A stretch of 64,000 nucleotides of DNA from Cyanophora paradoxa CCMP329. Lineage: Eukaryota; Plantae; Glaucophyta. A program made the position numbers and the translations under genes. The stretch covers positions 6,294-70,293 of the forward strand of contig QPMI01000500.1 in assembly GCA_004431415.1 (NCBI GenBank), read 5' to 3'. Below, piece by piece: positions 9,428 to 54,444 of the stretch. The notes beneath the pieces were generated by a model. That model had not been told where the DNA came from. It ran no database searches and saw only the letters and a list, made by a program, of their open reading frames with translations. Each line of letters opens with the position of its first letter. Within the stretch, counting starts at the first letter, position 1.

Positions 9428-9611
9428 GATAATCGAGAAAAAGCGGTCTCAGTATGCAACTGAGGCAGCTATAAAAGTTTACAGACAGGAACTGGTGTTC
9501 GCAACAAAAAATGACTTAAGGAAAAAGTACATAGGTTGTATTGAGGAAAAATTATTTTCGTATCTACTATTAAAGAGAAATGCCGAATATCCGCAAGATA
9601 CTCACAGATGA
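9408..9611 (+). CDS. Hypothetical protein containing the left breakpoint of the A/B cassette swap
   Basis: First ~23 codons shared with B (43495-43565), then unrelated. Confidence 0.45.
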   Translation: MDPQVYKIIEKKRSQYATEAAIKVYRQELVFATKNDLRKKYIGCIEEKLFSYLLLKRNAEYPQDTHR

Positions 9612-9906
9612 TGAAAAAGCAGAAAAGCTGAGACTGAAAAGGGAGCAAGATGCCCAAAGAAAACGCGAAGCCTATCATAAAAAGAAGGAGGAACGATTAT
9701 CCCAAGGAGCCGCTACAGTTCACACACCAGAAGAACTCAAAAAGATTGCCCTCAGACACCAGAGGAAATACAGGGAAAATGAAGAATATCGCGAACAGAA
9801 AAAGGCAAAAGCGCTGGAATATTACCACAAGAAGAAAGATGAACAACCCAAGACACCCAAAGAGCATAAACCGGTTGGAAGACCTCGGAAATATATCGAA
9901 GAATAA
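9580..9906 (+). CDS. Small basic protein with AT-hook
   Basis: KPVGRPRKY; YRENEEYREQKKAKALEYYHKK. Confidence 0.62.
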   Translation: MPNIRKILTDDEKAEKLRLKREQDAQRKREAYHKKKEERLSQGAATVHTPEELKKIALRHQRKYRENEEYREQKKAKALEYYHKKKDEQPKTPKEHKPVGRPRKYIEE

Positions 9907-10015
9907 ATTCTCGATCAAAACAAATCTTGTAGAAATTGATTTGATCGGAGGCAAAAAAATGACAGCTTTCTTCCCTCTTTTTTAAAACTGTACCTATATA
10001 TCGAGACAGTATCCC

Positions 10016-10064
10016 GACCCAAAACTACTTAAGGACTTGGCAAATAATAGGATATATATAAAAG
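10016..10064 (+). promoter_or_regulatory. Putative promoter: GACCCAAAACTACTTAA ... TATATATAAAAG
   Basis: Same motif upstream of the B helicase (~46376-46418, minus) and 47696; variants upstream of 13386, 13514 and 46824. Confidence 0.6.
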
Positions 10065-10124
10065 ACAATTCCTCCTTCCGAAATTATTTTCTTCGTTAAA
10101 GGTAGAAGTCCCCCAAAATCGAAA

Positions 10125-12719
10125 ATGAACAAAATCGAGAAATTCGCCACCCCTGTTGAAAATGCCACATTCCTTAGTACTCTCATTGGTGATCGCAACA
10201 AGGTCACCCATGTATTTGATTCTGCCGAAGATGCCCTTGAAGCCATTGATAATAGCAAGGTTAAGACCTGGGCTGAATGCATTCAGCCTGAACAAGTCAC
10301 CAGAGTTTACCTGGACCTGGATAAATTCGCTGATTTGAAGGAGAACATTGCTGAAAACTATGCTGAGGCGGAAGCTGTTGTAAGAGAGATGAGAGATAAG
10401 CTATGGAAGCGATCTGGGACCACTTCGATTAACGATATTGCTGTTGCAGTTCGCCATAGAAGGGTTTATTTAATCAAGGAGGATGTCACCAAGTTCAAGA
10501 TCTCAGCCCACTTTATCATTAAATCGCTTGCATGCAAACATGAAGATATCCCCAAGCTTTTCAAAGCAATGGGTTTGGTGAAAAATGAGGATTATGACAG
10601 TGGAGTTTACAGCTCCACACAGAACCTTATCTGCCTCAATTGCTGCAAAGGTGAGACTCTGGATGCTCAAAATAAATCGAAAAAAGATGTTGATAAAAAC
10701 GTTTGCTTTAAGAAATTCGTTGACTGTGACAAAGTGTTAATGCGAAATGAGGACTTCTTTGTATCTTACTTCTCAGCTACTACTAAACTTGTGGATGAAT
10801 CGAATATTTCTGCATTCGCAAATTATAGCCCTGAGCCAAAACCAGTTAAAAAGGAGCCGAAAAGTGATAAAGTGAAGACTGAGAAGGTAGAAGCTGAAAA
10901 AGACACTGAACCCGAAAATCCTGTTACTTTCGAGCTGCTACAAAGTGTTATAATGGGTCTGAATGGTGAGAGAGCTAATGAGTATAAAACTTGGATTGAT
11001 GTAGGACTGGTCATCATCAATGTTGGGGAAGACAACAAGTTCACCCCTAAAATGCAAGCTGAACTCTTCCACCAATTCTCAGAACAGAGTGACAAGTATG
11101 ATTATGATGAATGCCAGGAGAAGTTTACACAACTTCGCAGAAGCAAGAAGAAGGCTGAGCCTGGCAAAGTGTTGACCTTCAAATCCTTGGTTTATTGGTT
11201 GAGCAAAGATAACAATGAGCTTTTCAAGGAACTCTTCCCCAAAAAGTATGCATTCCTACCAGAGGACACAGATGAAATCGATTACAAGACTGCAAGTATC
11301 CCTCCTTTGGCTGAACATTACAATGTGCATAAGAGGTATTTCAATGCTCGAATGCATCATGTTGAAAATGTTGGTTGTGTGATGCTCTGGGATGAACAAC
11401 TACTTTGCTGGATGCCCAAAGATATTGGGAAGCTCTCTACAAAGCATTTCCCCCACTTGATGCATAAGGTGATTGTGAATGAGGGGACAGATAATGAGAA
11501 AGAGAAATGGGAGCAATCATTTAGGAAATGGATTGTGGATCCAACAGCCACAAGATCAACTTACATGGATTTCCTCCCACCTCCTGCTACTCTCAGTGCC
11601 AAATGCAAGTCTGTATTTAATCTCTATCCAGGAATGAAGGTTGACCATCAGCAATTCGAAAATGCTCCAGAGGATGTAACTGCTGAGATGATTAAGCCTT
11701 TCCTAGATCACTTGTTCTTAATGTCTGGTGAGGATCAAAATACTTACGAATATCTATTGAAATGGTTTGCCCACATGCTGCAAAAGCCTGGGGAACTCAA
11801 TGGAGTATCCATAATCTTCATTGGTGAACAGGGTACTGGTAAGAATGTGTTGGTTGATACTTTTCAAAAGAAGATACTTGGAGATGCCCTGAGTTATGCA
11901 ACTGGTAAGCCAAAAGAGGATCTGTTTGGTCGATTTGCCCACAATAGAGAGGATAAGATCTTGATTGTTGTCAATGAAGCCTCAGGCAAGGACACATTCG
12001 AAAATAATGATATGCTTAAGGATCTCATAACTTCTGATAAGATTGTAATTGAACACAAAGGGATAGATTCATACACAAAAAGCAACTTTGCCAGGATTAT
12101 ATTCACCAGCAATAATAACATTCCAGTTAAAATTGAAGCTGGAGATAGGCGATTTGTGGTTGTTGAAGTTAGTAAGAAATTCGCAAAGGATAGGTCATAC
12201 TTCCTTCCACTTGTCAAATGGCTAAATGATCACTGCAATATTCGAAACATTGCCCACTATTTGAGAACCAAAGTTGACTGTGAGGATGTGAACTGGATTG
12301 CTGATAGACCCCTCACAAATAAATACTATTTAGCCCAACAGGTATGCGCCCCAATCATTCTTATGTTCACTAAGTGGCTTGTGGATCGAGGCTTAATTTC
12401 CGAGAATAAATGCAAGTCTGGTAGCCTTGTGGAAACCTGGAAGTGGTTCCAGGAGTTCATTACCAGCAACAAATATAAAAACGATTATAATAGTCGCAGA
12501 TATTATACTGAAATGAGAAGTGTTACATATATTCAAGTGAAAACTACAAATGGCAAACAATACTATCATTTCCTATTCCCACAAGTATTTGAGGAATTCA
12601 GAAAGATGAAACTTGTAGATGATGAGACTATTGAGGAGGAAGCTAATCCAAGGATGAAGCAAGACCTACCTGCTGCTGATCCTGATGCATCAGATTATGA
12701 TTCTGATGTTGAAGTTTAG
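10125..12719 (+). CDS. AEP primase + PriCT-2 + SF3 helicase (type A)
   Basis: RVYLDLD and KISAHFII (AEP), EYKTWIDVG...FSEQSDKYD (PriCT-2), GEQGTGKN, IVVNEA, IIFTSNN, DRRFVV. Confidence 0.92.
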   Translation: MNKIEKFATPVENATFLSTLIGDRNKVTHVFDSAEDALEAIDNSKVKTWAECIQPEQVTRVYLDLDKFADLKENIAENYAEAEAVVREMRDKLWKRSGTTSINDIAVAVRHRRVYLIKEDVTKFKISAHFIIKSLACKHEDIPKLFKAMGLVKNEDYDSGVYSSTQNLICLNCCKGETLDAQNKSKKDVDKNVCFKKFVDCDKVLMRNEDFFVSYFSATTKLVDESNISAFANYSPEPKPVKKEPKSDKVKTEKVEAEKDTEPENPVTFELLQSVIMGLNGERANEYKTWIDVGLVIINVGEDNKFTPKMQAELFHQFSEQSDKYDYDECQEKFTQLRRSKKKAEPGKVLTFKSLVYWLSKDNNELFKELFPKKYAFLPEDTDEIDYKTASIPPLAEHYNVHKRYFNARMHHVENVGCVMLWDEQLLCWMPKDIGKLSTKHFPHLMHKVIVNEGTDNEKEKWEQSFRKWIVDPTATRSTYMDFLPPPATLSAKCKSVFNLYPGMKVDHQQFENAPEDVTAEMIKPFLDHLFLMSGEDQNTYEYLLKWFAHMLQKPGELNGVSIIFIGEQGTGKNVLVDTFQKKILGDALSYATGKPKEDLFGRFAHNREDKILIVVNEASGKDTFENNDMLKDLITSDKIVIEHKGIDSYTKSNFARIIFTSNNNIPVKIEAGDRRFVVVEVSKKFAKDRSYFLPLVKWLNDHCNIRNIAHYLRTKVDCEDVNWIADRPLTNKYYLAQQVCAPIILMFTKWLVDRGLISENKCKSGSLVETWKWFQEFITSNKYKNDYNSRRYYTEMRSVTYIQVKTTNGKQYYHFLFPQVFEEFRKMKLVDDETIEEEANPRMKQDLPAADPDASDYDSDVEV

Positions 12720-12727
12720 GTTTATTC

Positions 12728-12911
12728 AAAAGTGGACTCATAGTTGACTCAAATTTATCATAAAAGACCCAAACAGTCTTTTATTTATGGTTTATTTATC
12801 GATTAGGTTGACTAAGTGGGGAGAGTTGACTCATTTTTTCACAGATTCTTAAAGAGGACTCTGCCCTAAAAAGAAATAAAAAGTGCCTCAACTCCACCCA
12901 CTAAGTCAACT
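12728..12911. repeat. Origin/iteron-like motif 1 (GTTGACT), directly downstream of the type-A helicase
   Basis: AAAGTGGACTCA.AGTTGACTCA, then GGTTGACTAAGTGGG..GAGTTGACTCA 78 bp later, then inverted TCAACT/AGTCAAC. Same motif and spacing in the TIR at 19473/19551. Confidence 0.75.
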
Positions 12912-13386
12912 TAACACTTAGATCACTTCTACATACTGGACATTTGAATTGATCTTTTGATGGCAGCTTTGCTGTGCAGTCACCACATACTTGACTATTA
13001 CACTTGAAACAACTCCATGTCCCAGGGGGTTCATCAGTTTCCAAACAAACAACACATGTTTTATCCTCTTCCCTCTCAAAAGATATGATGACATCATGTA
13101 AGAACGATTTCAGTATACTCTCGGAAATCGATTGAGGAACTAAGTAACCACTGTCTTTAAAGAGAATAAAGCAAAGTTGCTTTCTCTCAGAAGAATATCC
13201 ATTCACCACATTCAAGTTATGAAACATTTTGACATGCTTTTCAGTATAAGAAATCACATAAATTTTGTTTTCATTCAATGAGCGATCTAAGAGATCTCTG
13301 GTTGCATCAGTAAACATACTTGTGGCATCCTCAACAGGTATTGAGGTCAAAGATTTCAGAGTTTCTATGATATCTTGGGAGTTCAT
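12901..13386 (-). CDS. RING-finger protein (putative E3 ubiquitin ligase)
   Basis: CVVC...CFKC...CGDC...CPVCR. Confidence 0.8.
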   Translation of the reverse strand: MNSQDIIETLKSLTSIPVEDATSMFTDATRDLLDRSLNENKIYVISYTEKHVKMFHNLNVVNGYSSERKQLCFILFKDSGYLVPQSISESILKSFLHDVIISFEREEDKTCVVCLETDEPPGTWSCFKCNSQVCGDCTAKLPSKDQFKCPVCRSDLSVKLT

Positions 13387-13513
13387 CGATCCTTTCTACT
13401 AGTAGAAAAGAAAATAATTTTTCCTATATATCCTTTTTTCAAATTCGCTTTAAGCCATTTCTAAAAAATGATTTAAGAGATAGAAAAATATATTTATATG
13501 TTAGAAGTAAGAC

Positions 13514-13864
13514 ATGGCTGGAACAGATCATGATTCTGGATCGATCTATATGATTGAGAGTCAGGAAATGAACAAAATCTACATAGGGAGAACCTCACAA
13601 AAAGTACAAATCCGATGGAAACAACACAAATCAGGTCAAATGCCATCCACAGCAGACCTATGCAAGGCTGCTGATGTGAAGTTTTCAGTCTTGTATTCAA
13701 GTAAGAAGGGTGGGCATGAAGACCTTATGAACAGAGAAGCATACTACATGTATCTGTTTGAACCTTGGATAGTCAATTTACAAAAACCGAAATCGAGATT
13801 TAGGATAAATAGGTTTTTGCGATTCCATTCAGAGGAAGCCAATGGATCCATTAAAACATTTTAA
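13514..13864 (+). CDS. GIY-YIG endonuclease
   Basis: SIYMIES...IYIGRT...IRWKQH...RE. Confidence 0.85.
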   Translation: MAGTDHDSGSIYMIESQEMNKIYIGRTSQKVQIRWKQHKSGQMPSTADLCKAADVKFSVLYSSKKGGHEDLMNREAYYMYLFEPWIVNLQKPKSRFRINRFLRFHSEEANGSIKTF

Positions 13865-13925
13865 AAATGCGTTTAGAACATCCTAAAATAAAATATCCCC
13901 TTAGAATAGGAACAAGTTAGGGATA

Positions 13926-16900
13926 ATGCCCCGAATTACCAACAAACTCATAAGGGAGAAGAAATGGGAACTCATGGGATTGCTGGGAACACTTTATGCA
14001 GCCCATGAAATAACAGAGGCTGAATATGACCGGGAAATAGATTTAATTGCAAAGGGTAGACCCACTTTAGCCAGATTAACCAGAAAAGCAAATAACCTAT
14101 ATGATAAAATTGAAACCTTGGATGAACTGGATAGGCTTAGGCAAATAGAACCAGAGGCAGAAGATGGAACAGCCATGAATGAATTATATCGCTGGCTCAC
14201 TTACAGAGCCAGAAGGGAAGTTGTTGTAGATGTGATTGAATTCCTGGACAGAATTGCTACATCCCTTCCAGATCGATTAAAGCAGGGTTTAGATCAATTC
14301 AGGGCAATCAAGGTTCGCTTGTCTTTTATCTGCAAGTTCGTAAAAGTAAGCAATCCGCAGGTTTGGATATCGAAATACATTTACAGCGATTATTTTGTAC
14401 TAACCAGATCGAGAAATATTCGAACTGAGCTGAATAAAGCAGCCCAAATATGTCAGGAGCAGATGAATGTGGTTGATAGCTATCGCTTAGAAAGAATTGA
14501 AATACTCAGAGTGGCTATTATGAGTTATGCTCCAACAGGTGGATGCTTTCTACAAACCCCAGAGTGGATTGCTAGGAAGAGAGCCACAGTAAATATTCGA
14601 AATATTGATGATTCCTGCTTCGAAAATGCAATTTTGGCATATATTCACAGAAAAGCGATAAACTCCCATAAGAGGAATGAGCTTTCACAGTATCGCAAAT
14701 GGAAATACTCAGCAATCGCTTATAATCCGCTGGCTCTCAATTTCGACAATATCCCATTCCCTGTTGCCTGTGATGCTGAAATAATTGATAAATTCGAATC
14801 TCAAAATGCAGGCATCAGCATAAACATATTTGGAATGGATCGAGATGTTATATATCCCCTACATCAATCCAGCAACCCAGGCAGAAAGCAAAAGATTAAT
14901 CTCATGCTCATTCATGATGATGAAGGGAATGGTCATTATATTACAATCATGTCCCTTTCAAGATTATTGAAAGTAAACCATGAAACATACAATGATCAGA
15001 AGTTACACTACTGTGACACATGCTTATCTCGATTCAGGTCTGAGGCTAAACTCACTGCTCATGTGGACTCAAATAGATGCATTGATTGGAGACTCTCAAA
15101 GGGAATCACACCAAAACCTGAGACCACCATAGAGTTTGGACTGAAAAACCTCAGGAAAACTGTTTGGCTTCCTGTTGTGGTTTACTGCAAGATTGAACAT
15201 AGAAGCATCCCCATTGATGCATCAAAATCTAAGAGGGAAGTCTCAGCAGTCAACCTGAGAGTAGTCACTGGGGCAGATGTTCAGGAGTTTCGATTTGAGG
15301 GTCAGGATCCAATGGGAGGTCTCTTTGAATGCTTGGAGTCCAAAGCAAGAGAACTAATCGATTTCCTGTTTACCAACATTCCTATGAATGAACTCACAGA
15401 TGAGCAGAAAGCAATTTACAGAGCTACCAAACACTGTTACCTTTGCAGTGAGAGGTTCACTAAGGAGAACTTCAAATGCAGGGATCATGATCACCACACA
15501 GGTCATTATATTGCTCCTGCATGCAGAAACTGCAATCTCCATAGGAGAATCTCAAAGCAAACCAAAGTTGCAGTAGTTGTTGACCAAATGGATGACTGTG
15601 GGACATTCATTTTCAGAAAAATAGCAGGCATGGGTGATAAAAATCGAATCGAAATCCTTTCGAAAAACTTTGATCAATACCTTTCATTGCAATGGGGTCT
15701 TTACAAGTTCATTGATGCAAGCAATTTCATGGATTTTGGAGCTGCTGATGTAGATGAGTTAATGAACAAATTCCAAGCCTTCAGAAGGCTTTCACACTCA
15801 GTATATGGACTTGACCCAGTTCATTATGTATCTGCACCTGGGTTATCTTGGGATGCTATGCTTAGGACCACCGAGGCAAAAATAGAGCTTATAAGTGATG
15901 TAGAGCAATACGAATTTGTTGAGAGGGGAATCAGGGGTGGCTTTGCAACAATGCCTTGTAGGTATGCTGAGGCTGATGGTGAGAACTCCCACATTATGCT
16001 GTTTGATGCTAACAACTTGTATGGCTACTGTTTGAGTCAGCCAATTCCAGTTGGTGATTTTAGATGGGAGACCGAATTCAACCCACAAGATAACAGATCC
16101 AGTTTCCTGGAAGTTGATCTGGAATACCCAATAAGGCTATATCTAGACCACAGTGATTTCCCCCTAATTATTAACAAGAAAATAGTAGAATATGCGGAAT
16201 TATCACAATATCAAAAGAGCCTGTTGGATCTTTCAGGAGAAGAGCTTGATAAGACCCCTAAGCTAACTGCAACCTTTGGTTCTGTGGCAAACTATGTGAT
16301 TTCTGAGCCTCTTCTGCAATATCTGTTGGACAAAGGTGTGAAATTAAAGAAAATTCACAGGGTCCTCTCATTTACTGTGGCTCCTGTAATGAAACCCTAC
16401 ATTGAGCTGAACACTGATATGAGAAGGAAAGCAGTGAATAAATTCGAGGCTGATTTCTATAAACTCATGAATAACTCAATCTATGGGAAATGCATTGAAT
16501 CATGTAGAGGTAGATCTGTGGTTAAGATTGCAAACAGTGAGAAACTGTTTATGAAATATGCAGCTTCCCCATTGGTGAAATCAACAAGTCCCATAAACGA
16601 AAAAGCAGTTGCCTTTGAGTTTTACACAAAGCATGTGAAACTAGATAAGCCTGTTGCAATTGGGGCTTATGTTTTGGATGCAGCCAAACTGCATAATTAC
16701 CAGTTCTTCTATGATACTGTAAGGTCCCAATGGACAAAAGCAAAGTTACTATTCCATGATACTGACTCCTTCTGTCTATATATTGAATCTAAGACCTTAC
16801 AAAAAGATATAGAGAATATATCTTATGCCTTGGACCTAGGGGGATCTAACAGAATGACCCCAGGTAAATACAAAAATGAAATGCCTGGCTCTGCAATATT

Positions 16901-17171
16901 GGAGTATGTAGGTCTGAGAGCAAAAGTTTACAGTTTCAGAACTGCTGAGATTGAGAGGAGTAAGCTCTCTGGGACTTCCACTGAGGAACTCCAATTTAAT
17001 GATTTTAAGCAGTGTTTATTTGCAGGTATCAGCAAGACTGTGACTGCAAAGCAGAAGAGAAGGGCAGATCACACAATAATAGATACCGTGAGTAGAAGGG
17101 TTGCCCTAAACTGCTTTGATGCAAAGAGATACATCTTACCAGATGGTATTAATTCTGTTCCTTTTAATTAA
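13926..17171 (+). CDS. polB: Protein-primed family B DNA polymerase (terminal protein/vOTU-like N-terminus, EndoVII-like insert)
   Basis: DANNLYG, KLMNNSIYGK, HDTDS, GLRAKVYS. CYLC...RDHDHHTG...ACRNCN insert. DDSCF/GHY motifs. Confidence 0.96.
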   Translation: MPRITNKLIREKKWELMGLLGTLYAAHEITEAEYDREIDLIAKGRPTLARLTRKANNLYDKIETLDELDRLRQIEPEAEDGTAMNELYRWLTYRARREVVVDVIEFLDRIATSLPDRLKQGLDQFRAIKVRLSFICKFVKVSNPQVWISKYIYSDYFVLTRSRNIRTELNKAAQICQEQMNVVDSYRLERIEILRVAIMSYAPTGGCFLQTPEWIARKRATVNIRNIDDSCFENAILAYIHRKAINSHKRNELSQYRKWKYSAIAYNPLALNFDNIPFPVACDAEIIDKFESQNAGISINIFGMDRDVIYPLHQSSNPGRKQKINLMLIHDDEGNGHYITIMSLSRLLKVNHETYNDQKLHYCDTCLSRFRSEAKLTAHVDSNRCIDWRLSKGITPKPETTIEFGLKNLRKTVWLPVVVYCKIEHRSIPIDASKSKREVSAVNLRVVTGADVQEFRFEGQDPMGGLFECLESKARELIDFLFTNIPMNELTDEQKAIYRATKHCYLCSERFTKENFKCRDHDHHTGHYIAPACRNCNLHRRISKQTKVAVVVDQMDDCGTFIFRKIAGMGDKNRIEILSKNFDQYLSLQWGLYKFIDASNFMDFGAADVDELMNKFQAFRRLSHSVYGLDPVHYVSAPGLSWDAMLRTTEAKIELISDVEQYEFVERGIRGGFATMPCRYAEADGENSHIMLFDANNLYGYCLSQPIPVGDFRWETEFNPQDNRSSFLEVDLEYPIRLYLDHSDFPLIINKKIVEYAELSQYQKSLLDLSGEELDKTPKLTATFGSVANYVISEPLLQYLLDKGVKLKKIHRVLSFTVAPVMKPYIELNTDMRRKAVNKFEADFYKLMNNSIYGKCIESCRGRSVVKIANSEKLFMKYAASPLVKSTSPINEKAVAFEFYTKHVKLDKPVAIGAYVLDAAKLHNYQFFYDTVRSQWTKAKLLFHDTDSFCLYIESKTLQKDIENISYALDLGGSNRMTPGKYKNEMPGSAILEYVGLRAKVYSFRTAEIERSKLSGTSTEELQFNDFKQCLFAGISKTVTAKQKRRADHTIIDTVSRRVALNCFDAKRYILPDGINSVPFN

Positions 17172-17174
17172 GAG

Positions 17175-18560
17175 ATGCCAGCAACTGGAAGAATAGTTAG
17201 GAGAACCACTGAGCAACTACAAGGTAACCTACTGCCTATCACAGTTCCAAAGGAGGAAAAAGGGGAATCTCGAATTGTCAAAAAATCAGAGATGAAAGAG
17301 CTTGTCCCTGTGGAGATCCCAGTTGCTATTGCAGTGAAAGAAACTAGCAAGATTGCCAAGAGATTCTATGATGTGAGGACTGGTTACAAAGGGCTTCAAG
17401 CTATGAGGGCTGAGTTACCAGATGAATCCTATAAGCAGTTGCAAGAGTTCTATAAAAAACAAGAGGTAGTTCAGATCAATGCACCTGCTATATCTAGGAA
17501 GAGAGATCCCATGGTTCCAATAAGGCAACCCCTTGATACCTATGTGATTGATTTGCTCTTTTTCCCAGCTTATAAGAAACAAAACAATGGCTATGATACC
17601 TTTATGACTGCTATGGAATCAACACTGAGAACTGGATATATCATACCTATAAGAGATAAATCAGCTCTCACTACATTAGCTGCATTTAAGCAGCTTGAAA
17701 TGAGAGTGGCAAGACCCATAGTAAAAGTTCAATCAGATGCTGGGAGTGAGTTCCAAAATCGAATATTCCAGGAGTATTTATCTAGTAAATTCATAGAACA
17801 CCAAGTGAGTGGAACTGCAGACCATAGAAGCCAAGGTCGAATTGAAGCCTTTAACAAGCAGATTAAGAGACTGATCACAAACTACTGCATAGCTAATAAC
17901 ACAGCTAGATTCTTTGATGTGTTAGGTGATATTGAGTATAATTACAATAATACAGTTCACTCAGCTACTAAGATGAAGCCAGGCGAAACTACAGAGGAGC
18001 ATTATAGGTATATAGTGGGATTAGAAGATGAAAGATTCAAGAAATCAATAGCTTACCTTGATACCATGCAGCCAGGCATGTTTGTTAGAGTGAAAGTTGA
18101 GAAAAATGCCTTTGCTAAACAGGGTAACAATTGGTCTAGGATGGTTTACACTGTTGATAGTAGGGAAGGCTTTAAGTTTAAGCTAAGGAGTCCCACTGGT
18201 GAGATCATAGAAAACAGGTTTGCTTTCCATGAGCTGTTACCTGTGAATTCAGTTGAGTATCTGGAAACACCTACAGTGGATGCATTAGAGCAAGCCAAAG
18301 AGGAAGCCAAGGTTGATGCTGCTATAAGGAGAGAAGGCATAGAAGCTGCTAATGAAGTCCCAGATAAGCCTTTGATAGAGGCTAGAAAGGAGAAGACTGG
18401 CAAGGTTAATAGGGAACTCAAAAAGCTCACTATAGCAGGGACACAGAAACTTTCTGAGGTTAATAGCCAGAGATGGTATAATGACTTTCAGACTACTAAG
18501 GAGTCATATACAGCCCCTAAACCTCAGAGAACACTAAGAGAAAGGACCAAAACTAGCTAG
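17175..18560 (+). CDS. int: Retroviral-type (rve) DDE integrase
   Basis: YVIDLLF, VQSDAGSEF, QGRIEAFNK, YNNTVHSATKMKP. Confidence 0.95.
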   Translation: MPATGRIVRRTTEQLQGNLLPITVPKEEKGESRIVKKSEMKELVPVEIPVAIAVKETSKIAKRFYDVRTGYKGLQAMRAELPDESYKQLQEFYKKQEVVQINAPAISRKRDPMVPIRQPLDTYVIDLLFFPAYKKQNNGYDTFMTAMESTLRTGYIIPIRDKSALTTLAAFKQLEMRVARPIVKVQSDAGSEFQNRIFQEYLSSKFIEHQVSGTADHRSQGRIEAFNKQIKRLITNYCIANNTARFFDVLGDIEYNYNNTVHSATKMKPGETTEEHYRYIVGLEDERFKKSIAYLDTMQPGMFVRVKVEKNAFAKQGNNWSRMVYTVDSREGFKFKLRSPTGEIIENRFAFHELLPVNSVEYLETPTVDALEQAKEEAKVDAAIRREGIEAANEVPDKPLIEARKEKTGKVNRELKKLTIAGTQKLSEVNSQRWYNDFQTTKESYTAPKPQRTLRERTKTS

Positions 18561-18785
18561 TTTGCTAGGCAAAAACTCGTTTTTTCCAAATATATGTATG
18601 ACTGATATACATATATGCACATGATATACACATAGTCTTGTAGATCTTATCAAGCGCTTCACAGCGATATGCAGAACGTTGCGTTTTGATGATCTGGTGA
18701 TGAGATATAACAGTTTGAAGATGCAAAAGTCACTTGCCATAGTAGACTTGGTGAAACACTAGCCCAGGAGTCGACTTGGAAGTAA

Positions 18786-24830: not shown

Positions 24831-24831
24831 A

Positions 24832-42255: not shown

Positions 42256-42283
42256 AATTATCTCTCATTCTAATAAAGATACA

Positions 42284-44000: not shown

Positions 44001-44039
44001 TATAAAAATAATATAAATCAATCATTAATCGTTTCGTTT

Positions 44040-46356: not shown

Positions 46357-46569
46357 TTTCAGCGATTGGGGGTCCCTTTTATATATATAGAAGATTTTTC
46401 TTTAAGTAGTTTTGGGTCCCCCAATCATTTTTTGTTGGAAATCGAGAAAGTATCCCTACGAAATATTTCCACACGACTTATCGAGTGGTTCAGATACAAA
46501 AAGGATGAATGGGTATTTCAGCGAATAAACAGCATATCCCCAGCCTAGTAATATGCTGGGAAAAATAAT

Positions 46570-46824
46570 TTAGACATGTTTCAATTTTCTCCCTCTGTTT
46601 GAGTAAGGGACATCATACAAATACTTGACAAAGCAGACTGCATTGGCTGCATACTTTCGCTGACATGAACTGGCTATTTTCATGGCTCTATAAGTATCAT
46701 CATTGTTATATAGATCTCTTAGCTGTGTGGCTATTTTTTCGTTAAACTTTTTGATTTGAGCCTTACCTTTTTCAGTTTGCTGATATCTTTTCATAGCTCT
46801 CTTCTGGGCTTCACTGAGTGGCAT
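46570..46824 (-). CDS. Small basic hypothetical protein
   Basis: SEAQKRAMKRY; own promoter motif at ~46843-46874. Confidence 0.55.
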   Translation of the reverse strand: MPLSEAQKRAMKRYQQTEKGKAQIKKFNEKIATQLRDLYNNDDTYRAMKIASSCQRKYAANAVCFVKYLYDVPYSNRGRKLKHV

Positions 46825-46880
46825 TTTTCCTTTGTCTCTCTTAATATATATAGAGAATTCTTTAAATCATTTTTTGTTCT

Positions 46881-47696
46881 CTAACCTCTTTGTCCAAATC
46901 GCTCAATATACATAAGTTTGAAATGCTTACCTAGCAATGCTACAAATGGTTCAATTTCCAAGGTCTCCCATGTTTTCTTGTCCTTATTCCATCTGCAATC
47001 TAATCCTTTTGCGATATCTTTTTTAAGATAAGGCACCTGAAACCCAGCAACCAATGTATTTGTTGTACTGAGTTCTGCATACATTTCAATCAATGCAGAT
47101 CTGCCCTCTCTGAACCTCTCTATATCATCTCTGCGAAGATTATCCATTTTCGGAATAAATTGGTTGCACCAAATCAGGAAAAGATTAACTGCATGTTTAT
47201 TCCTTGCTCTTTCTTGTTCTAATTCTCTCTGTCTTCGCTCTCTTTCTTCTAATTCAAGCTGCCTCTTTCGAGCTTCCTCTTGTTTTTCAAGTTCTCTTTT
47301 TCTTTCCAGTTCTTCTTGCTTTAAAGCGATTCTGCACTTATTACAGAAATTATCCTTTCGGTTTTTATGCCGATCTCCACATCTTTCACATATATCTTGA
47401 CCTCTGGCACCCTTCGGAATAAATCGTAAAATGCAGCAATTCCCAACAATGACCACAATCTTTTTATTAACATGCAGAATATAGCATTGCTCTTTAATTG
47501 GATGATCACAGGCGCAATGCTCAGACTCTGGAGGCAGGTCATAGTCACTTAATCCATATTTTGCAAGCTTTGCCCAAAGAGGGAGCGGTTTCCTGTTACT
47601 TCCAAGAGCAACATAATCATTGAAGTTATCAGATCCACAAAGCAACATTAAAGCCGCTTTGAGCTTTTCCAGGCAATACGATTTCTTCTCTGCCAT
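46881..47696 (-). CDS. Zn-binding / coiled-coil / DUF5710-like protein
   Basis: CACDHPI...VGNCCI, CERC...CNKC, VPYLKKDIAKGLDCRWNKDKKTW. Confidence 0.65.
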   Translation of the reverse strand: MAEKKSYCLEKLKAALMLLCGSDNFNDYVALGSNRKPLPLWAKLAKYGLSDYDLPPESEHCACDHPIKEQCYILHVNKKIVVIVGNCCILRFIPKGARGQDICERCGDRHKNRKDNFCNKCRIALKQEELERKRELEKQEEARKRQLELEERERRQRELEQERARNKHAVNLFLIWCNQFIPKMDNLRRDDIERFREGRSALIEMYAELSTTNTLVAGFQVPYLKKDIAKGLDCRWNKDKKTWETLEIEPFVALLGKHFKLMYIERFGQRG

Positions 47697-47805
47697 TTTC
47701 CTTTTATATATATAGAAGATATTTCTTTAAGTAGTTTTCATCAAATTTTGTGTTCAGAATTCCCCATTTAAAACCTCCGCTTTTAATAGGAACAAGTTAG
47801 GAACA

Positions 47806-50800
47806 ATGCCCCGAATTAGCAACAGACTTATTAGAGAAAAGAAATGGGAACTCATGGGATTACTGGGAACACTGTATGCAGCCCATGAAATCACAGAGGC
47901 TGAATATGACCGGGAAATCGGATTTATTTCAAGGGGCAGACCCACTTTAGCAAAATTAACCAGAAAAGCCAATACCCTCTATGATAAAGTTGAAACTCTT
48001 GATGAACTCGATCGCCTGAGGCAAATAGAACCAGAGGCAGAAGATGGAACAGCTATGAATGAATTATATCGTTGGCTCACATACAGAGCCAGAAGGGAAG
48101 TTGTTGTAGATGTGATTGAATATTTAGATAGAATTGCAACCTCTCTACCAAAACGTTTAAGGGATAGTCTGGATCAATTCAGGGCAATCAAAGTTCGCTT
48201 GTCGTTTATCTGCAAGTTCGTAAAAGTCAGCAATCCACAGGTTTGGATATCGAAATACATTTACAGCGATTATTTTGTATTAACCAAATCGAGAAATATT
48301 CGAACTGAGCTGAATAAAGCAGCCCAAATGTGTCAGGAACAGATGAATGTTGTTGATAGCTATCGATTGGAGAGAATCGAAATGCTAAGAGTTGCTATTA
48401 TGAGTTATGCCCCAACTGGTGGCTGCTATGTTAAAACACCAGAATCAATTGCAGCCAAGAGAGCCACAGTGAATATTCGAAATATTGATGATTCTTGCTT
48501 TGAAAATGCCATTTTGGCATGGATCCATAGGAAAGATGTAAATTCCCACAAGAGGAGTGAGCTTACACAATATCGCAAATGGAAATACTCACCATCCACA
48601 TACAATCCTTTGGCTCTCAATTTCGACAATATCCCATTCCCTGTTCCTTGTGATGCTGAAATCATTGATAAATTCGAAGCTCAAAATGCAGGCATTAGCA
48701 TAAACATCTTTGGAATGGATGGAGATGTTATATATCCGCTGCATCAATCCAGCAACCCAGGCAGAAAGCAAAAGATTAATCTCATGCTCATTCATGATGA
48801 TGAAGGGAATGGTCACTATATTACTATTATGTCACTCTCAAGACTTCTAAGAGTTGCCCTTGATAAAACCAAGGATCAAAAGTTACACTACTGTGATACA
48901 TGCTTATCTCGATTCAGGTCTGAGGCTAAACTCACTGCTCATGTGGACTCAAACAGATGCATTGATTGGAGACTCTCAAGGGAGTCACCCCTAAACCTGA
49001 AACCACAATAGAGTTTGGACTCAAAAACCTTAGGAAACTGTTTGGCTTCCTGTTGTGGTCTACTGCAAGATTGAACATAGAAGCATCCCCATTGATGCAT
49101 CGAAATCCAAGAGGGAAGTCTCAGCAGTCAACCTGAGAGTAGTCACTGGGGCAGATGTTCAAGATTTTCGATTTGAGGGGCAGGATCCAATGGGAGGTCT
49201 CTTTGAATGCTTGGAGTCCAAAGCTAGAGAGCTGATCGATTTCCTGTTCACCAATATTCCCATGAATGAACTCACAGATGAGCAAAAGGCTGTTTACAGG
49301 GCTACTAAACACTGTTACCTTTGCAGTGAGAGGTTCACCAAGGAGAACTTCAAATGCAGAGATCATGATCACCACACAGGTCAGTACATTGCTCCTGCAT
49401 GCAGAAACTGCAATCTTCATAGGAGAATCTCAAAGCAAACAAAAGTAGCAGTGGTTGTTGACCAAATGGATGACTGTGGGACATTCATTTTCAGAAAAAT
49501 AGCAGGCATGGGTGATAAAAAGCGAATCGAAATCCTTTCGAAAAACTTTGATCAATACCTTTCATTGCAATGGGTCTTTACAAGTTCATTGATGCAAGTA
49601 ATTTTATGGACTTTGGGGCTGCTGATGTAGATGAGTTAATGAGCAAATTCCAGGCTTTCAGAAGGCTTTCACACTCAGTATATGGATTGGACCCAGTTCA
49701 TTATGTATCTGCACCTGGGTTATCTTGGGATGCTATGCTTAGGACCACCAAGGCAAAAATAGAGCTTATAAGTGATGTAGAGCAATACGAATTTGTTGAG
49801 AGGGGAATCAGGGGTGGCTTTGCAACAATGCCTTGTAGGTATGCTGAGGCTGATGGTGAGAACTCCCATATAATGCTGTTTGATGCTAACAACTTGTATG
49901 GCTACTGTTTGAGTCAGCCAATTCCAGTTGGTGATTTTAGATGGGAGACCGAATTCAACCCACAAGATAACAGATCCAGTTTCCTGGAAGTTGATCTGGA
50001 TTACCCAATTAGGCTATATCTAGACCACAGTGATTTCCCCTAATTATTAACAAGAAAATAGTAGAATATGCCGAATTATCACAATATCAAAAGAGCCTAT
50101 TAGATCTCTCAGGAGAAGAGCTTGATAAGACCCCTAAGCTAACTGCAACCTTTGGTTCTGTGACCAACTATGTGATTTCTGAGCCTCTTCTACAGTATCT
50201 GTTGGACAAAGGGATGAAACTAAAGAAGGTTCACAGGGTCCTATCATTTACTGTGGCTCCTGTAATGAAACCCTACATTGAGCTGAACACTGATATGAGA
50301 AGGAAAGCAGTGAATAAATTTGAGGCTGATTTCTATAAGCTCATGAATAATTCAATCTATGGGAAATGCATTGAATCATGTAGAGGTAGATCTGTGGTTA
50401 AGATTGCAAACAGTGAGAAACTATTTATGAAATATGCAGCCTCTCCATTGGTGAAATCAACAAGCCCCATAAACGAAAAAGCAGTTGCCTTTGAGTTTTA
50501 CACAAAGCATGTGAAACTAGATAAGCCTGTTGCAATTGGGGCTTATGTTTTGGATGCAGCCAAACTGCATAATTACCAGTTCTTCTATGATACTGTAAGG
50601 TCCCAATGGACAAAAGCAAAGTTACTATTCCATGATACTGATTCCTTCTGTCTATATATCGAATCTAAGACCTTACAAAAAGATATAGAGAATATATCTT
50701 ATGCCTTGGACCTTGGAGGTGATTCAAGAATGACCCCAGGTAAATACAAAAATGAGATGCCAGGTTCTGCTATACTGGAGTATGTGGGTCTGAGAGCCAA

Positions 50801-51046
50801 AGTTTACAGTTTCAGAACAGCTGAGATTGAGAGGAGTAAGCTCTCTGGACTTCAACTGAGGAACTCCAATTTAATGATTTTAAACAGTGTTTATTTGCAG
50901 GTATCAGCAAGACTGTGACTGCAAAGCAGAAAAGAAGGGCAGATCACACAATAATAGACACTGTGAGTAGAAGGGTTGCCCTAAACTGCTTTGATGCAAA
51001 GAGATACATCTTACCAGATGGTATTAATTCTGTTCCTTTTAATTAA
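47806..51046 (+). CDS. polB: pPolB, B copy (frameshifted)
   Basis: Highly similar to 13926-17171. Confidence 0.93.
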
Positions 51047-51049
51047 GAG

Positions 51050-52432
51050 ATGCCAGCAACTGGAAGAATAGTTAGGAGAACCACTGAGCAACTACAAGGT
51101 AACCTACTGCCTATCACAGTTCCAAAGGAGGAAAAGGGGAATCTCGAATTGTCAAAAAGTCTGAAATGAAAGAGCTTGTCCCAGTAGAGATCCCAGTTGC
51201 TATTGCAGTGAAAGAAACCAACAAGATTGCCAAGAGATTCTATGATGTGAGAACTGGTTATAAAGGGCTTCAAGCTATGAGGGCTGAGTTACCAGATGAA
51301 TCCTATAAGCAGTTGCAAGAGTTCTATAAAAAACAAGAAGTTGTTCAGATCAATGCACCTGCTATATCTAGGAAGAGAGATCCCATGTCCCAATTAGGCA
51401 ACCCCTTGATACCTATGTGATTGATTTGCTCTTTTTCCCAGCTTATAAGAAACAAAACAATGGCTATGATACATTTATGACTGCAATGGAATCAACACTG
51501 AGAACTGGGTATATTATACCTATAAGAGATAAATCAGCTCTCACTACATTGGCTGCATTTAAACAGCTTGAGATGAGAGTGGCAAGACCAATAGTAAAGG
51601 TTCAATCAGATGCTGGAAGTGAGTTCCAAAATCGAATATTCCAGGAGTATTTATCTAGTAAATTCATAGAACACCAAGTGAGTGGAACTGCTGACCACAG
51701 AAGCCAAGGTCGAATTGAAGCCTTTAACAAGCAGATTAAGAGACTGATCACAAACTACTGCATAGCTAATAACACAGCTAGATTCTTTGATGTGTTAGGT
51801 GATATTGAGTATAATTACAATAATACAGTCCACTCAGCTACTAAGATGAAGCCAGGTGAAACTACAGAGGATCATTATAGGTATATAGTGGGATTAGAAG
51901 ATGAAAGATTCAAGAAATCAATAGCTTACCTTGATACCATGCAGCCTGGCATGTTTGTTAGAGTGAAAGTTGAGAAGAACCCCTTTGCTAAACAGGGTAA
52001 CAATTGGTCTAGGATGGTTTACACTGTTGATAGTAGGGAAGGCTTTAAATTTAAGCTAAGGAGTCCCACTGGAGAGATCATAGATAACAGGTTTGCTTTC
52101 CATGAGCTGTTGCCTGTGAATGCAGTTGAGTATCTAGAAACACCTACAGTGGATGCCTTGGAGCAAGCTAAAGAGGAAGCTAGGGTTGATGCTGCTATAA
52201 GGAGAGAGGGCATAGAAGCTGCTAATGAAGTCCCAGATAAGCCTTTGATAGAGGCTAGAAAGGAGAAGGCTGGGAAAGTTAACAGGGAACTCAAAAAGCT
52301 CACCATAGCAGGGACACAGAAACTTTCAGAAGTGAATAGCCAGAGATGGTATAATGACTTTCAGACTACTAAGGAGTCATATACAGCTCCTAAACCTCAA
52401 AGAACACTAAGAGAAAGGACCAAACTAGCTAG
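51050..52432 (+). CDS. int: rve integrase, B copy (frameshifted)
   Basis: Highly similar to 17175-18560; DDE intact. Confidence 0.92.
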
Positions 52433-52917
52433 TTTGCTAGCCGAAAACTCGTTTTTTCAAAATATATGTATGACTGATATACATATATGCATATGCTATA
52501 CACATAGTCTTGTAGATCTTTTCAAGCGCTTCACAGCGATATGCAGAACGTTGCGTTTTGATGATCTGGTGATGAGATATAACAGTTTGAAGATGCAAAA
52601 GTCACTTGCCATAGTAGACTTGGTGAAACATAGGTTTCCCACTGAGAACGCGATATATACGAATATATCCGCTGGTATATATAAATGCTCCGACTATGAG
52701 AGTCGATGTGACGGGCGCGTTTATACGGTAGAAAAAAGAGGGAATTTTTCCGATTTTTTGATTATATATATGTATATGTATATATATTTTTTAATTATTT
52801 TTTTCCAAACATTTTTCTTGGTCAACCGGCAATACGGAGGTTTTGGTATATATAGTGTATATATGTCGTGACGTCACGTGTATATATACGGTATATATGT
52901 CGTGACGTCATGCAAGA

Positions 52918-53030
52918 TTTGTAATGTAAGAATTGTAAACATTGTAAGAATTGTAATGTAAGAATTGTAAGAATTGTAAGAATTGTAAGAATTGTAAGAA
53001 TTGTAATGTAACTATTGTAAGAATTGTAAT
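52918..53030. repeat. Tandem ~9-bp TTGTAAGAA repeats
   Basis: About a dozen degenerate units, followed by inverted TTACAA copies. Confidence 0.85.
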
Positions 53031-53393
53031 AAGTCGATACCCCCGTCGCACATTACAACCGGGGGAACAAATACAATTACAATTGGAACCCAAGAAATCC
53101 AAGAAAAGCATACAAACTGCTGTAACTCTTCACCAACTCATCCGTTTTAAAAACCGCGACCATCGCCGGAATCCTCTTTGCATCCTCTACACATCTATGC
53201 TACTTTCGCGAACTGGATCGTAGATTTGCCCGGGTTTGTGGGGCTGAATATGTCTCTTTTGTGGTCTGAAAGTCTGTATACCATCTCTGACTGTATGATC
53301 TCGAATAATCCACCTAAATCTACTTTATAGATAATCGTGATTACACCTGTGAAACCATCAATCTAACACTGCATTTAGTAAGCATCTGCCCTA

Positions 53394-54444
53394 GATTCCC
53401 CCTATAATTAAAGTGGAATCAAGGTTGACTCATATTAATCGATAGTATATGGATTTTGTTACGAATTCAATGCAAGGGTTGACTAAGTGGGTTGAGTTGA
53501 CTCAAATTTCACAGGAAATAACAATGAATCAGAGTATAAAATGCATTTTTTTTTGAATCAACTACACCAACTAACACTGAGATTTTCACAATATATGAGG
53601 TCCTTACTGAATATGGTATGTGTCACAGGTGTCACAGGTCTATCCCAAAGTTTTCTATAGCATAAAAATGAACTCTCAAAAGTTTGGGATGGACCTGTGA
53701 CACCTGTGACACTCGATTATTTCATTTGTTTATTCAAGTAGAATTACATAGATAAACTTCTTACTTATTGTTACTGAGTTTTTCATTATAAAAGAGGATC
53801 TTACCATAAATGGTGTTGTTCACAGGTGTCACAGGTCTATCCCAAAGTTTTCACATATATAAAAATCAACTATCAAAAGTTTGGGATTGACCTGTGACAC
53901 CTGTGACACCTGTGACACCCAATTTTCTAAGGGTCCCCCCTTAGACTCAACAAAACAATGATAAAATCATATAAGTTTCATGTATAATTACGATTGAATT
54001 CAATAAGAGATCGATTTGTTAATATAAACAAATGAATCATTTATGGATCTTAATCGAGTTTAGCGATATATTTCCGATTAAATGAATTAATTTAATTAAA
54101 TTTAATCGAGAAAGTACATGAATATAATATCGATTAAATCAATTACCTTTTAGACCAATCACACATAGTAAAATGCGGAGTTTTAACCAGAGGCAAGATC
54201 TAATTGAGATTCAGTTATATTATTCGGAAATATATACAGATTATCGATTGACTCAGTAAGACTAATCGGAAAATAAGAGAAATTTACGATAAAATATCGA
54301 AAAGAATACAAAATAATCGAAATAATTGAATATTCGATAAGATATACACAGATTATCGATTGATTGAAATAGAATATACGAGATATATCAACAAAATCAA
54401 TTAAGATAAGCCGAGGGTTAAAACTCCGCATTTTACTATGTGTG
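53394..54444. repeat. Right TIR of element B
   Basis: Inverted copy of the left TIR, with a different and duplicated iteron block. Confidence 0.92.

Follow-up and report, generated by a model that had tools for sequence, protein, structure and literature searches.

Results

Two sister elements differ by a non-homologous cassette

The window, that is the whole 64-kb stretch of DNA that was analyzed, contains two elements, A and B, which to judge from their genes and ends are virus-like integrated elements with features of Polintons/Mavericks or of mavirus-type virophages. Element A extends on the plus strand from the start of the window (position 1) to 20565; its left end lies outside the window, and its right end stops at ...CTATGTGTG. 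Element B (26503-54444) is a sister of A, about 94% identical to it outside the cassette described below. By repeat comparison and blastn, the identity was 94.6% over 8598 columns between 907-9495 of A and 35044-43582 of B, and 93.8% between 13889-18758 of A and 47769-52630 of B. The GC content of element A is about 0.40, as compared with 0.49-0.57 in the flanks.

Pfam searches identified in element A an A32-type packaging ATPase (7358-8140), an intact pPolB (13926-17171; DNA_pol_B_2, E 2.7e-13) and an intact rve-like integrase (17175-18560), which in the match to rve scores under the 32.6-bit cut-off (21.7 bits, E 2.5e-4). The integrase was 27-31% identical, by tblastn, to the ORF found 3' of pPolB in loci L011-L014. 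The relatives of pPolB in viral_contigs were only 32-35% identical; they were found in four viral contigs, with an integrase after pPolB in each. The candidate capsid ORFs had no match in Pfam. Terminal inverted repeats (TIRs) are present: the left and right arms of B are 91-98% complementary, and the right TIR of A matches both. No target-site duplication of 5-6 bp was found at B, where the left flank reads GCTCTT and the right flank ACAAGG; a later rearrangement may account for this, since the sequence adjoining B on the left is a piece of another element. The elements belong to a highly repeated family, with thousands of contig pieces that align, and an exact scan of metagenome_contigs with the 27-nt TIR end gave no match.

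Sequences A and B begin to differ at position 9477, where the region singled out in a preliminary description of this DNA starts. Between the conserved flanks, cassette A (9496-13888, 4393 bp, plus strand) is non-homologous by blastn to cassette B (43583-47768, 4186 bp, minus strand). Cassette A comprises a 108-aa basic ORF (9580-9906), helicase A (10125-12719, plus strand), an iteron module (m1) and, both recognized with Pfam, a RING ORF (12901-13386, minus strand) and a GIY-YIG ORF at the cassette edge (13514-13864). In the majority of contigs, 12910 is joined directly to 13463, so that the RING gene is skipped. Cassette B carries, all on the minus strand, an iteron module (m3), helicase B (46401 to 44056) and two ORFs, one of 98 aa (46570-46866) and one of 281 aa with zinc-finger/DUF5710 features (46881-47726).

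Helicase A is an intact D5/P4-family primase-helicase of 864 aa with PriCT-2 and DUF5906 domains (Pfam). Helicase B contains Prim-Pol, D5_N and DUF5906 domains (Pfam) followed by a P4-type C-terminal tail, and is broken here into four frame pieces; in contigs from other genomic copies, single-base differences in length occur at the frame breaks or close to them. No significant similarity between the two helicases was detected by BLASTP (best E 1.6), and they lie in a non-homologous cassette of about 4.3 kb, which confirms the initial proposal that the sisters carry non-orthologous primase-helicases. Both match TIGR01613, the P4 family model, though below its curated cut-off, and the tail of helicase B showed a weak match to the P4-family C-terminus (E 0.013). 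In protein searches, the best relatives of helicase A shared 30% identity with it across 69% of its length, or 38% across 29% (11 matches), and the best relative of a helicase B piece was 43% identical (113 matches); viral_contigs contained no close relative of helicase A or of the helicase B piece. Both are putative initiators.

The two helicases end 7.8 kb (A) and 10.4 kb (B) from the right terminus, with pPolB and the integrase in between. In runs X1, X2 and X8, the helicase A and helicase B regions each accounted for about one quarter to one third of the summed contig depth of the shared flanks, and together for about 60%. The shortfall might point to additional cassette types, but contig depth differs from copy number and does not permit a conclusion. 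Among the loose ends listed at the cassette borders, three matched, all to A-type sequence; beyond this listing, a third type may exist.

Structural model of helicase A

The model of helicase A had a mean pLDDT of 59.8 and was confident over residues 500-830. It aligned with the C-terminal region of NrS-1 (Z 25.5, 325 residues), with SaPI5 PriRep (Z 20.4, residues 391-814 of the model, C-terminal domain included) and with PriRep1-dsDNA (Z 16.2), the structural alignments reaching residue ~817. A winged-helix domain is predicted at the C-terminus, where the model shows a confident helix/beta-hairpin fold (~730-830) that is matched in the alignments by the C-terminal domains of SaPI5 PriRep and PriRep1.

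A different iteron module follows each helicase

The window contains 8 copies of motif 1, GTTGACTC, where 1.79 would be expected (a count of 8 was reached in 0 of 100 shuffles), and all 8 copies sit in four modules, at 12729-12832, 19473-19577, 27253-27350 and 53410-53503. The spacing within pairs is 82-83 bp, or 72 bp in the right TIR of B, and not the 78 bp reported at first. Motif 3, ACAGGTGTSACAGGT, is present 14 times against 0 expected; all copies are found in five modules, at 43885-44005, 19935-20039, 27040-27140, 53620-53715 and 53815-53920.

One module of each type is internal, and each of these lies just 3' of a helicase gene on the same coding strand. Internal module m1 (12725-12915, plus strand) starts 10 bp past the stop codon of helicase A, in agreement with the preliminary description; it consists of direct iteron blocks, AAGTGGACTCATAGTTGACTCA and GGTTGACTAAGTGGGGAGAGTTGACTCA, around a 77% AT spacer, and then of a tail homologous to the TIR junction. 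The different motif that had been noticed after helicase B was indeed found at 43885-44005 (internal module m3, minus strand, as is the gene with its four frame pieces), ~50-75 bp past the last helicase B piece. It has opposed arms of 9-bp ACAGGTGT(C/G) iterons, a 69% AT spacer and a header, CCTTACTGAAATGGT, on the helicase side. Contigs from DNA runs X1, X2 and X8 bridge the 3' end of helicase B into the m3 arm, and one X8 contig (12666-12910) bridges the stop codon of helicase A through m1.

In the m3 modules, each arm has 2-3 iterons, in opposite orientation to those of the other arm, and the spacers are 66-79% AT, compared with 60% for the element; the ninth base of the iteron (C or G) differs between modules and between arms. 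In m1 the iterons are all direct and the spacer is 74-77% AT. Module m3 folds as a DNA hairpin (z of -5.0 for the internal copy, with a range of -5 to -12); no hairpin folding was found for m1 (z of +0.7 and -0.1). An exact scan of viral_contigs with an m1 26-mer gave no match. As candidate origins, the modules measure about 120-190 bp each.

The TIRs contain arrays of modules

The right TIR of A (19455-20565, plus strand) contains, in this order, m1 (19473-19640), a further module, m2 (19654-19888), m3 (19890-20039) and, distally, an end of 525 bp that is rich in TCGAT. The left TIR of B (26503-27385, minus strand) contains m1 (27170-27360) and m3 with G-type iterons (27025-27196), and has no m2. 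In the right TIR of B (53330-54444, plus strand), m1 (53410-53560) is followed by two copies of m3 with C-type iterons (53564-53715 and 53760-53920) and then by the distal end. Thus m1 and then m3 occur in series in the inner part of 3 of the 3 TIRs, as first described, with the addition of m2 in the right TIR of A and of a second m3 in the right TIR of B. Because A and B share their TIRs by descent, the presence of both motifs whichever helicase is encoded needs no selection. Module m2, which was found in the right TIR of A only, consists of four copies of TGTCAGGC and one inverted copy, and is bounded by a 19-bp direct repeat. The distal TIR contains 13 ATCGA/TCGAT in 526 bp. The few contigs of run X15, which is only guessed to be RNA, fell mainly on the TIR and pPolB and carry no weight here.

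The TIR arrays are reminiscent of the multiple transposase sites at the ends of some DNA transposons, and the modules, which in the TIRs stand among several short repeats including those of the TCGAT type, might be subterminal binding sites for the integrase or for a terminal protein, with internal copies that are accidental. We regard this as very unlikely: A and B have a conserved integrase and pPolB (~94% DNA identity), yet there are three iteron types, and it is helicase genes rather than the integrase that the internal copies accompany.

Iterons are conserved and spacers are not

Comparison of internal and TIR copies of m1 showed that 46 of 50 positions are identical in the iteron blocks, versus 26 of 55 in the spacer and 37 of 71 in the tail (Fisher p 4.8e-8). 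Among the five copies of m3, compared pairwise, 206/220 and 250/270 positions are identical in the arms, versus 176/390 in the spacers. Between internal and TIR copies, the iterons are thus 92-94% identical and the spacers about 45-47% by these counts, the spacers of the internal modules ranging over about 30-47%. Because the iterons are conserved and the spacers have diverged, the module copies are old paralogues in which only the iterons have been held constant.

This selective conservation of iterons versus spacers, together with the precise location of modules after helicase stop codons, is difficult to reconcile with neutral repeat clutter spread by gene conversion. A highly repeated family would be a favorable setting for such spreading, the number of modules per TIR varies even within B, and contigs revealed further arrangements (a joint from 19954 to 19880, and loose ends at 19918 and 12806); we nevertheless hold this explanation to be extremely improbable.

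The conservation bears also on the possibility that the internal modules are relics of a donor TIR, an outward-reading helicase having been moved inside by recombination together with the first TIR module; the real origins would then be in the TIRs only and the internal copies would be idle. Several observations fit such an origin. The internal modules correspond to those of the TIRs along their full length, including the tail/junction of m1 and the header of m3; their orientation relative to the gene is that of the TIR modules read toward the terminus; m1 begins ~20 bp or less from the inner edge of the TIR; and primase-helicase genes adjoin inverted repeats in other Polinton-like viruses, according to the part of PMC11296320 that was consulted. 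An idle copy would, however, not be expected to keep its iterons 92-94% conserved while its spacers diverge, and such a history would still leave the module as the cognate origin of the helicase. We therefore consider idle relics unlikely.

The m3 iteron in other genomes

Reverse look-up of a 24-nt m3 iteron array yielded 48 loci, of which 8 were viral and 40 came from prokaryotic genomes, so that the m3 iteron is also present in mobile elements of prokaryotes. The array was inside an ORF of at least 160 aa in 31 of them and outside in 17. By tblastn, a primase-helicase match was found for 6 of the 17 non-coding arrays, versus 1 of the 31 coding-repeat loci (p 0.0055), and Pfam added a seventh. 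In all seven loci (L003, L007, L048, L022, L032, L029 and L035), a primase or helicase-operon gene was separated by 84-473 bp from the array on its 3' side. The C-termini of the prokaryotic helicases adjoining an m3-type iteron showed no detectable likeness, except for L003 with L048, and helicase B matched the C-terminus of L003 weakly (E 0.06-0.23). Since the C-termini are not detectably alike, a DNA-binding specificity common to the m3-associated helicases is not supported. The m3 9-mer could be shared by chance among very many iteron origins; the prokaryotic arrays speak for the class of element and not for the specificity.

No iteron array was found 3' of the helicase A-like genes of L009 and L010 (30% identity); L010 had a 23-nt inverted repeat 5' of the gene and nothing more. 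In the four elements with a 32-35% identical pPolB, no D5-like helicase was detected by tblastn, nor by Pfam among 13 of the 31 ORFs of at least 180 aa.

The data obtained on other genomes are also relevant to a role of the modules in transcriptional control, as sites for a transcription factor of the virus or of a helper virus, or as bidirectional terminators. The modules are intergenic, between convergent or tandem genes, and m3 is the kind of strong palindrome that is common in terminators and operators. Such a role would not be expected to leave the iteron words of m1 and m3 without any other occurrence in the 64-kb window, including all other intergenic regions of both elements, nor to place arrays in the TIRs, beyond the last gene. 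It would also have to accommodate two different modules after two different helicases, and the presence of this type of array 3' of primase-helicase genes in seven prokaryotic elements. Transcriptional control seems to us quite unlikely.

Discussion

On balance, and largely by analogy, we lean toward the view that each iteron module serves as origin and loading site for the D5/P4-family primase-helicase whose gene immediately precedes it, the two forming a swappable rep-ori cassette of the SaPI type. Through its C-terminal domain, each helicase would recognize its own iterons, and would open the AT-rich spacer and load itself there, like the SaPI Rep proteins. The cassette would move between siblings through recombination in the conserved flanks, possibly assisted by the GIY-YIG gene with which cassette A ends. 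Many virophages, Polintons and Polinton-like viruses encode both a protein-primed polymerase and a primase-helicase; by way of the module copies in the TIRs, a helicase would be able to open the ends of the element, from which the protein-primed polymerase starts. Because every TIR contains more than one type of module, replication of an element in trans by the helicase of a sibling is also possible, and is the least supported step.

The preliminary description had proposed that helicase and cognate origin travel as a unit. This part of it held to the extent that a distinct module lies 3' of each helicase in a SaPI-like layout, that contigs link the two, and that the helicase A model matches SaPI5 PriRep; it is limited by there being two cassette types only. 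Co-variation is thus seen with n=2, and the copies of each type share one ancestor and do not count as independent cases. Module m2 has no known partner helicase, and m1, with its direct repeats and lack of a hairpin, fits the SaPI layout less well.

A more tentative idea, which we think rather doubtful, is that the TIRs are multi-origin landing pads, in which m1, m2 and m3 would be interchangeable on a shared header-plus-iteron frame, with one module per circulating helicase type. Under this scheme, one or more additional helicase types should exist whose gene is followed by TGTCAGGC iterons. If it were true, any resident copy, the decayed B included, would be replicable by an expressed sibling helicase, or possibly by the D5-like helicase of a helper giant virus, and helicase-origin cassettes would be traded among siblings like plasmid incompatibility groups. 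Cross-replication through the TIR arrays could explain the persistence and amplification of hundreds of partly decayed copies per genome, as well as the ready turnover of replicon genes in this group of viruses.

In the literature searched, no origin has been defined for a virophage, a Polinton or a Polinton-like virus, and a search on iterons combined with polinton, virophage, polinton-like or Maverick retrieved no described iteron origin or helicase-linked module. The modules are concrete candidates for such origins, each paired with a named protein.

Among known systems, the alpha protein of phage P4 is a P4-family primase-helicase whose C-terminal domain binds repeated iterons, the same ones being present at two separated sites of the genome, ori and crr. 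The P4 replicon is bacterial and circular, has a single type of iteron and lacks terminal repeats. The present elements resemble it in that both helicases are of the P4 family and the iterons are at separated sites, and differ from it in having several iteron types and terminal repeats.

The SaPIs offer a closer parallel. According to the sections consulted of PMC9371898, their origins consist of iterons immediately downstream of the helicase ORF, with an AT-rich center and at least 2 iterons on each side, in opposed orientation. Similarly, m3 is formed of opposed iterons around an AT-rich center and both internal modules are just 3' of a helicase; moreover, different islands have different Rep/ori pairs, and Rep and PriRep5 are self-loading SF3 helicases. 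The differences are that the host is here a eukaryote and the replicon, a virus-like provirus, carries pPolB, an rve-like integrase and TIRs of 1 kb; that the iterons measure 8-9 bp, as against 5-6 bp in SaPIs; that m1 has direct repeats only; and that the TIRs hold additional copies of modules, of more than one type. Binding of iterons would apply here by analogy.

Mavirus-type virophages/EMALEs and Polintons/Mavericks, whose TIRs measure 0.2-2.3 kb, have pPolB, a primase/helicase, an ATPase of the A32 type and TIRs in common with elements A and B; their rve integrase has a putative counterpart here, with a match below the cut-off. In EMALE virophages, Hackl et al. (2021) noted that the primase/helicase can be replaced by a non-homologous one, in the portion consulted of PMC8547959. 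For Polinton-like viruses, Barth et al. (2024; PMC11296320, consulted in part) proposed that the inverted repeats serve as an origin for the primase-helicase, that replicon genes are exchanged among related elements, and that GIY-YIG nucleases may drive this turnover; the novelty claimed in the preliminary description was thus overstated. Cassette A, which ends with a GIY-YIG gene, agrees with their scheme. In the elements described in the consulted part of their study, the helicase is at the element end, next to the inverted repeats and with a tyrosine recombinase, and no iterons are defined, whereas in A and B a distance of 7-10 kb separates the helicases from the end, an internal module of its own accompanies each of them, and several module types are present in the TIRs.

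Two sister elements with non-homologous helicase cassettes

The window contains AT-richer insertions (GC ~0.40) within GC-richer DNA (0.49-0.57). Repeat finding and blastn delimited two sister elements, A, whose left end precedes the window and whose right end is at 20565, and B (26503-54444), with a common terminus, ...CTATGTGTG, at all three TIR ends present in the window. By blastn, A 907-9495 and B 35044-43582 were 94.6% identical, and A 13889-18758 and B 47769-52630 were 93.8% identical. Both elements encode a protein-primed PolB, an rve-like integrase and a packaging ATPase of the A32 type, and are members of the Polinton / mavirus-like virophage world; candidate capsid ORFs had no Pfam match. 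The replication genes are intact in A, while the PolB and helicase of B are broken into several frames. We also noted cargo-like genes in both, for a patatin-like phospholipase and an F5/8 type C (discoidin) domain protein (2476-2997 and 3119-3919; in B about 36610-37790), 66-bp tandem coding repeats in a common ORF without Pfam match (A, 1093-1394; B, 35231-35532), and a 300-bp internal duplication in the left-hand large ORFs of B (32029-33643; no Pfam match).

In the A-B interval, GC-rich DNA is accompanied by part of a third element, unlike A and B (21979-26509). Within this virus-like stretch (21400-26509) are an ATPase of the A32 type (24832-25536), a pair of large ORFs that had no Pfam match (22682-23557 on the minus strand, and 23601-24830) and tandem repeats of 57 bp (21433-21600 and 21853-21909). 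The left end of B adjoins it without a target-site duplication.

Between conserved flanks, A and B contain cassettes of 4393 bp (9496-13888) and 4186 bp (43583-47768), respectively, with no blastn similarity to each other. Cassette A encodes a basic 108-aa ORF, an intact 864-aa primase-helicase (helicase A, 10125-12719, plus strand; PriCT-2 and DUF5906), a RING-finger ORF on the opposite strand (12901-13386, minus) and a GIY-YIG endonuclease. The genes of cassette B are read on the minus strand: a zinc-finger/DUF5710 ORF (46881-47726), a 98-aa ORF and a helicase (Prim-Pol, D5_N and DUF5906) in four frame pieces. The DUF5710 ORF lies directly upstream of pPolB, as does one (842-1381) in L014, a distant viral contig whose pPolB is 32% identical. 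Helicases A and B both matched TIGR01613, a P4-family model, below its curated cut-off, and showed no significant BLASTP similarity (best E 1.6). The preliminary description was correct in calling them non-orthologous, though it overlooked the minus-strand position and frame breaks of helicase B.

The predicted model of helicase A (mean pLDDT 59.8) was confident over residues 500-830. Foldseek and VIA matched it to the C-terminal region of the NrS-1 primase-helicase (Z 25.5, rmsd 4.8, 325 residues), SaPI5 PriRep (Z 20.4, model 391-814), ASFV PrimPol (Z 17-19), PriRep1 with dsDNA (Z 16.2) and poxvirus D5/E5 (Z about 15-16). The structural alignments included the C-terminal helix/beta-hairpin domain of the model.

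Iteron modules next to the helicases and in the TIRs

Module m1 starts 10 bp past the helicase A stop and comprises a pair of direct iteron blocks at 82-bp spacing, a 77% AT spacer between them, and a tail. Module m3 follows the final piece of helicase B after about 50-75 bp, with two to three 9-bp ACAGGTGT(C/G) units per side, opposed, around a 36-41 bp AT-rich spacer. DNA folding gave a strong hairpin for m3 (z -5 to -12) and no such hairpin for m1. The words of both are restricted to the modules within the window: the m1 word GTTGACTC had 8 matches (1.79 expected; 0/100 shuffles as high) and an m3 15-mer had 14 (0 expected). A third module, m2, has four direct and one inverted copies of TGTCAGGC around an 80% AT spacer, and is flanked by 19-bp direct repeats, copies of the junction that elsewhere links m1 to m3. 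Its word count is weak alone (3/100 shuffles reach 5 matches), yet all five lie within 165 bp.

The modules recur as m1, m2, m3 in the A right TIR, m1, m3 in the B left TIR and m1, m3, m3 in the B right TIR; an adjacent helicase gene is known for m1 and m3 only. The earlier observations of both motifs in all three TIRs, and of non-orthologous helicases followed by distinct motifs that recur in the TIRs, were confirmed. Because a header (CTTAC..ATGGT) directly 5' of the first iteron is common to m2 and m3, and in one contig an m2/m3-type header is joined to the second of the m1 iteron blocks (loose end 12806), the three modules look, from their sequences, like one frame with exchangeable iterons.

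The internal m3 spacer (43922-43957) aligned better with a TIR spacer (19962-20002) in the orientation opposite to that of the header (81.5% over 92 bp plus orientation versus 72.8% over 125 bp minus), and the palindrome core appears to have been flipped between its inverted arms. Separately, every TIR has its terminal 29-33 bp (…GGTTAAAACTCCGCATTTTACTATGTGTG) in a second, inverted copy ~250 bp further in, and the AT-rich DNA enclosed by the two copies is dense in TCGAT-type repeats (20280-20565, 26503-26790 and 54160-54444); the end resembles a miniature element, or a terminus able to form a hairpin, embedded in the long TIR.

Since A and B are 94% identical overall, the internal and TIR copies of the modules must greatly predate the separation of A from B. 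Despite this age, their iterons still match. For m1, the iteron blocks of the internal and TIR copies were 46/50 identical, against 26/55 for the spacer and 37/71 for the tail (p 4.8e-8). Pairwise comparison of five m3 copies gave 206/220 and 250/270 identities for the arms and 176/390 for the spacers. Of the in-window arguments that a single protein would have to recognise both internal and TIR copies, this conservation is the strongest.

We lean towards a rep-ori cassette as the best explanation of the helicase-module pairs, their apparent co-variation being based on two pairs (n = 2). The preliminary description had further proposed that the TIRs collect origins, so that sibling helicases would replicate a genome in trans. 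We regard such communal use of TIR modules as rather unlikely; A and B could have inherited m1 and m3 in every TIR from a common ancestor.

Other copies in the same organism

Of 24 listed runs, 14 contained at least half of the query words. Logan contigs of three DNA runs (X1, X2, X8) and of a presumed RNA run were compared with both cassettes, and showed the element family to be highly repeated. Contigs in X1, X2 and X8 continued from the 3' end of helicase B into the proximal arm of m3, and one X8 contig ran from the helicase A stop through both m1 blocks to 12910. Helicase-module linkage holds within each cassette type; the copies are not independent tests of co-variation. At the cassette borders, the alternative sequences among the loose ends listed were all A-type. 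Other helicase B copies had single-base length differences at or near the frame breaks of B, indicating that the damage is specific to the element B copy. Further TIR module arrangements were seen (19954 joined to 19880 with 20 additional letters; loose ends before 19918).

The RING ORF was missing from most helicase A copies (joint 12910 to 13463 in X1, X2 and X8). The better-supported contigs skip it, and it resembles an uncommon insertion separating the GIY-YIG gene from m1.

m3-type arrays in prokaryotic elements

The exact 24-nt m3 array was found in 8 viral contigs and 40 prokaryotic genome contigs. Coding repeats, inside ORFs of 160 aa or more, accounted for 31 of the 48 loci; 17 lay outside. 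In tblastn with 132 primase-helicase queries, 6/17 non-coding and 1/31 coding loci had matches (p 0.0055), and Pfam searches of neighbouring ORFs in the non-coding set confirmed all six and added L035. The array lies 3' of the stop of genes for Prim-Pol + D5_N + DUF5906 (L003, 5880-6200; 198 bp), VapE/DUF5906 behind a Toprim primase (L007, 5860-6100; 86 bp), RepB_primase + D5_N + DUF5906 + Pox_D5 (L048, 3340-3600; 84 bp), DUF3854 + DUF927 (L022, 40-330; 327 bp), DnaG zinc ribbon + DUF927 (L032, 3320-3530; 178 bp) and a Toprim primase (L035, 3420-3700; 473 bp). In L029 (3440-3740), one ORF follows PriCT_1 + DUF5906, and the array is 358 bp after that ORF. Multiple ACAGGTGT(C/G) copies in both orientations are found just 3' of primase/helicase genes of the D5/P4, VapE, DUF927 and Toprim families in prokaryotic viral and genomic contigs, and several of the seven loci have further iteron copies in both orientations. 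The remaining 10 non-coding arrays adjoin unrelated genes.

Non-coding m3-type arrays therefore often lie a short distance 3' of primase-helicase genes. The same 9-mer may have arisen in prokaryotes by chance among very many iteron origins, and the C-terminal domains of the array-linked helicases were not detectably alike, L003 with L048 excepted; the prokaryotic arrays support a class of element, not a common specificity. Among distant relatives (L009, L010 and four elements with a related pPolB), we saw no sign of a helicase-adjacent iteron pattern: the helicase A-like genes of L009 and L010 lacked a 3' iteron array, and in the four elements (pPolB 32-35% identical) no D5-like helicase was detected by tblastn or, in 13 of 31 ORFs of at least 180 aa, by Pfam. 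The exact m1 block had no matches in viral contigs, and the exact TIR end none in metagenome contigs.

Comparison with known systems

In the relevant passages of PMC9371898, SaPI Reps are described as self-loading SF3 helicases whose C-terminal winged-helix domain recognises iterons immediately downstream of rep, the ori having an AT-rich centre with at least two iterons on each side, in opposite directions. Module m3 fits the description in those passages point by point, whereas m1 fits it solely in position and AT-rich spacer. Non-homologous primase/helicase replacement is known among virophages and EMALEs, according to the corresponding part of PMC8547959.

The novelty claim of the preliminary description goes too far. 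Full-text literature searches found no description of iteron origins in polinton, virophage, polinton-like or Maverick elements among the papers listed, and the relevant passages of Bellas et al. 2023 (PMC10120064) do not discuss origins. However, passages of Barth et al. 2024 (PMC11296320) already propose that inverted repeats of Polinton-like viruses are origins for the primase-helicase, as well as a turnover of replicon modules in which GIY-YIG nucleases may take part. Relative to these known systems, the probable helicase-origin pairs of the SaPI/P4 type would be a variant set in virophage-like proviruses of a eukaryote, whose TIRs hold paralogous modules in series.
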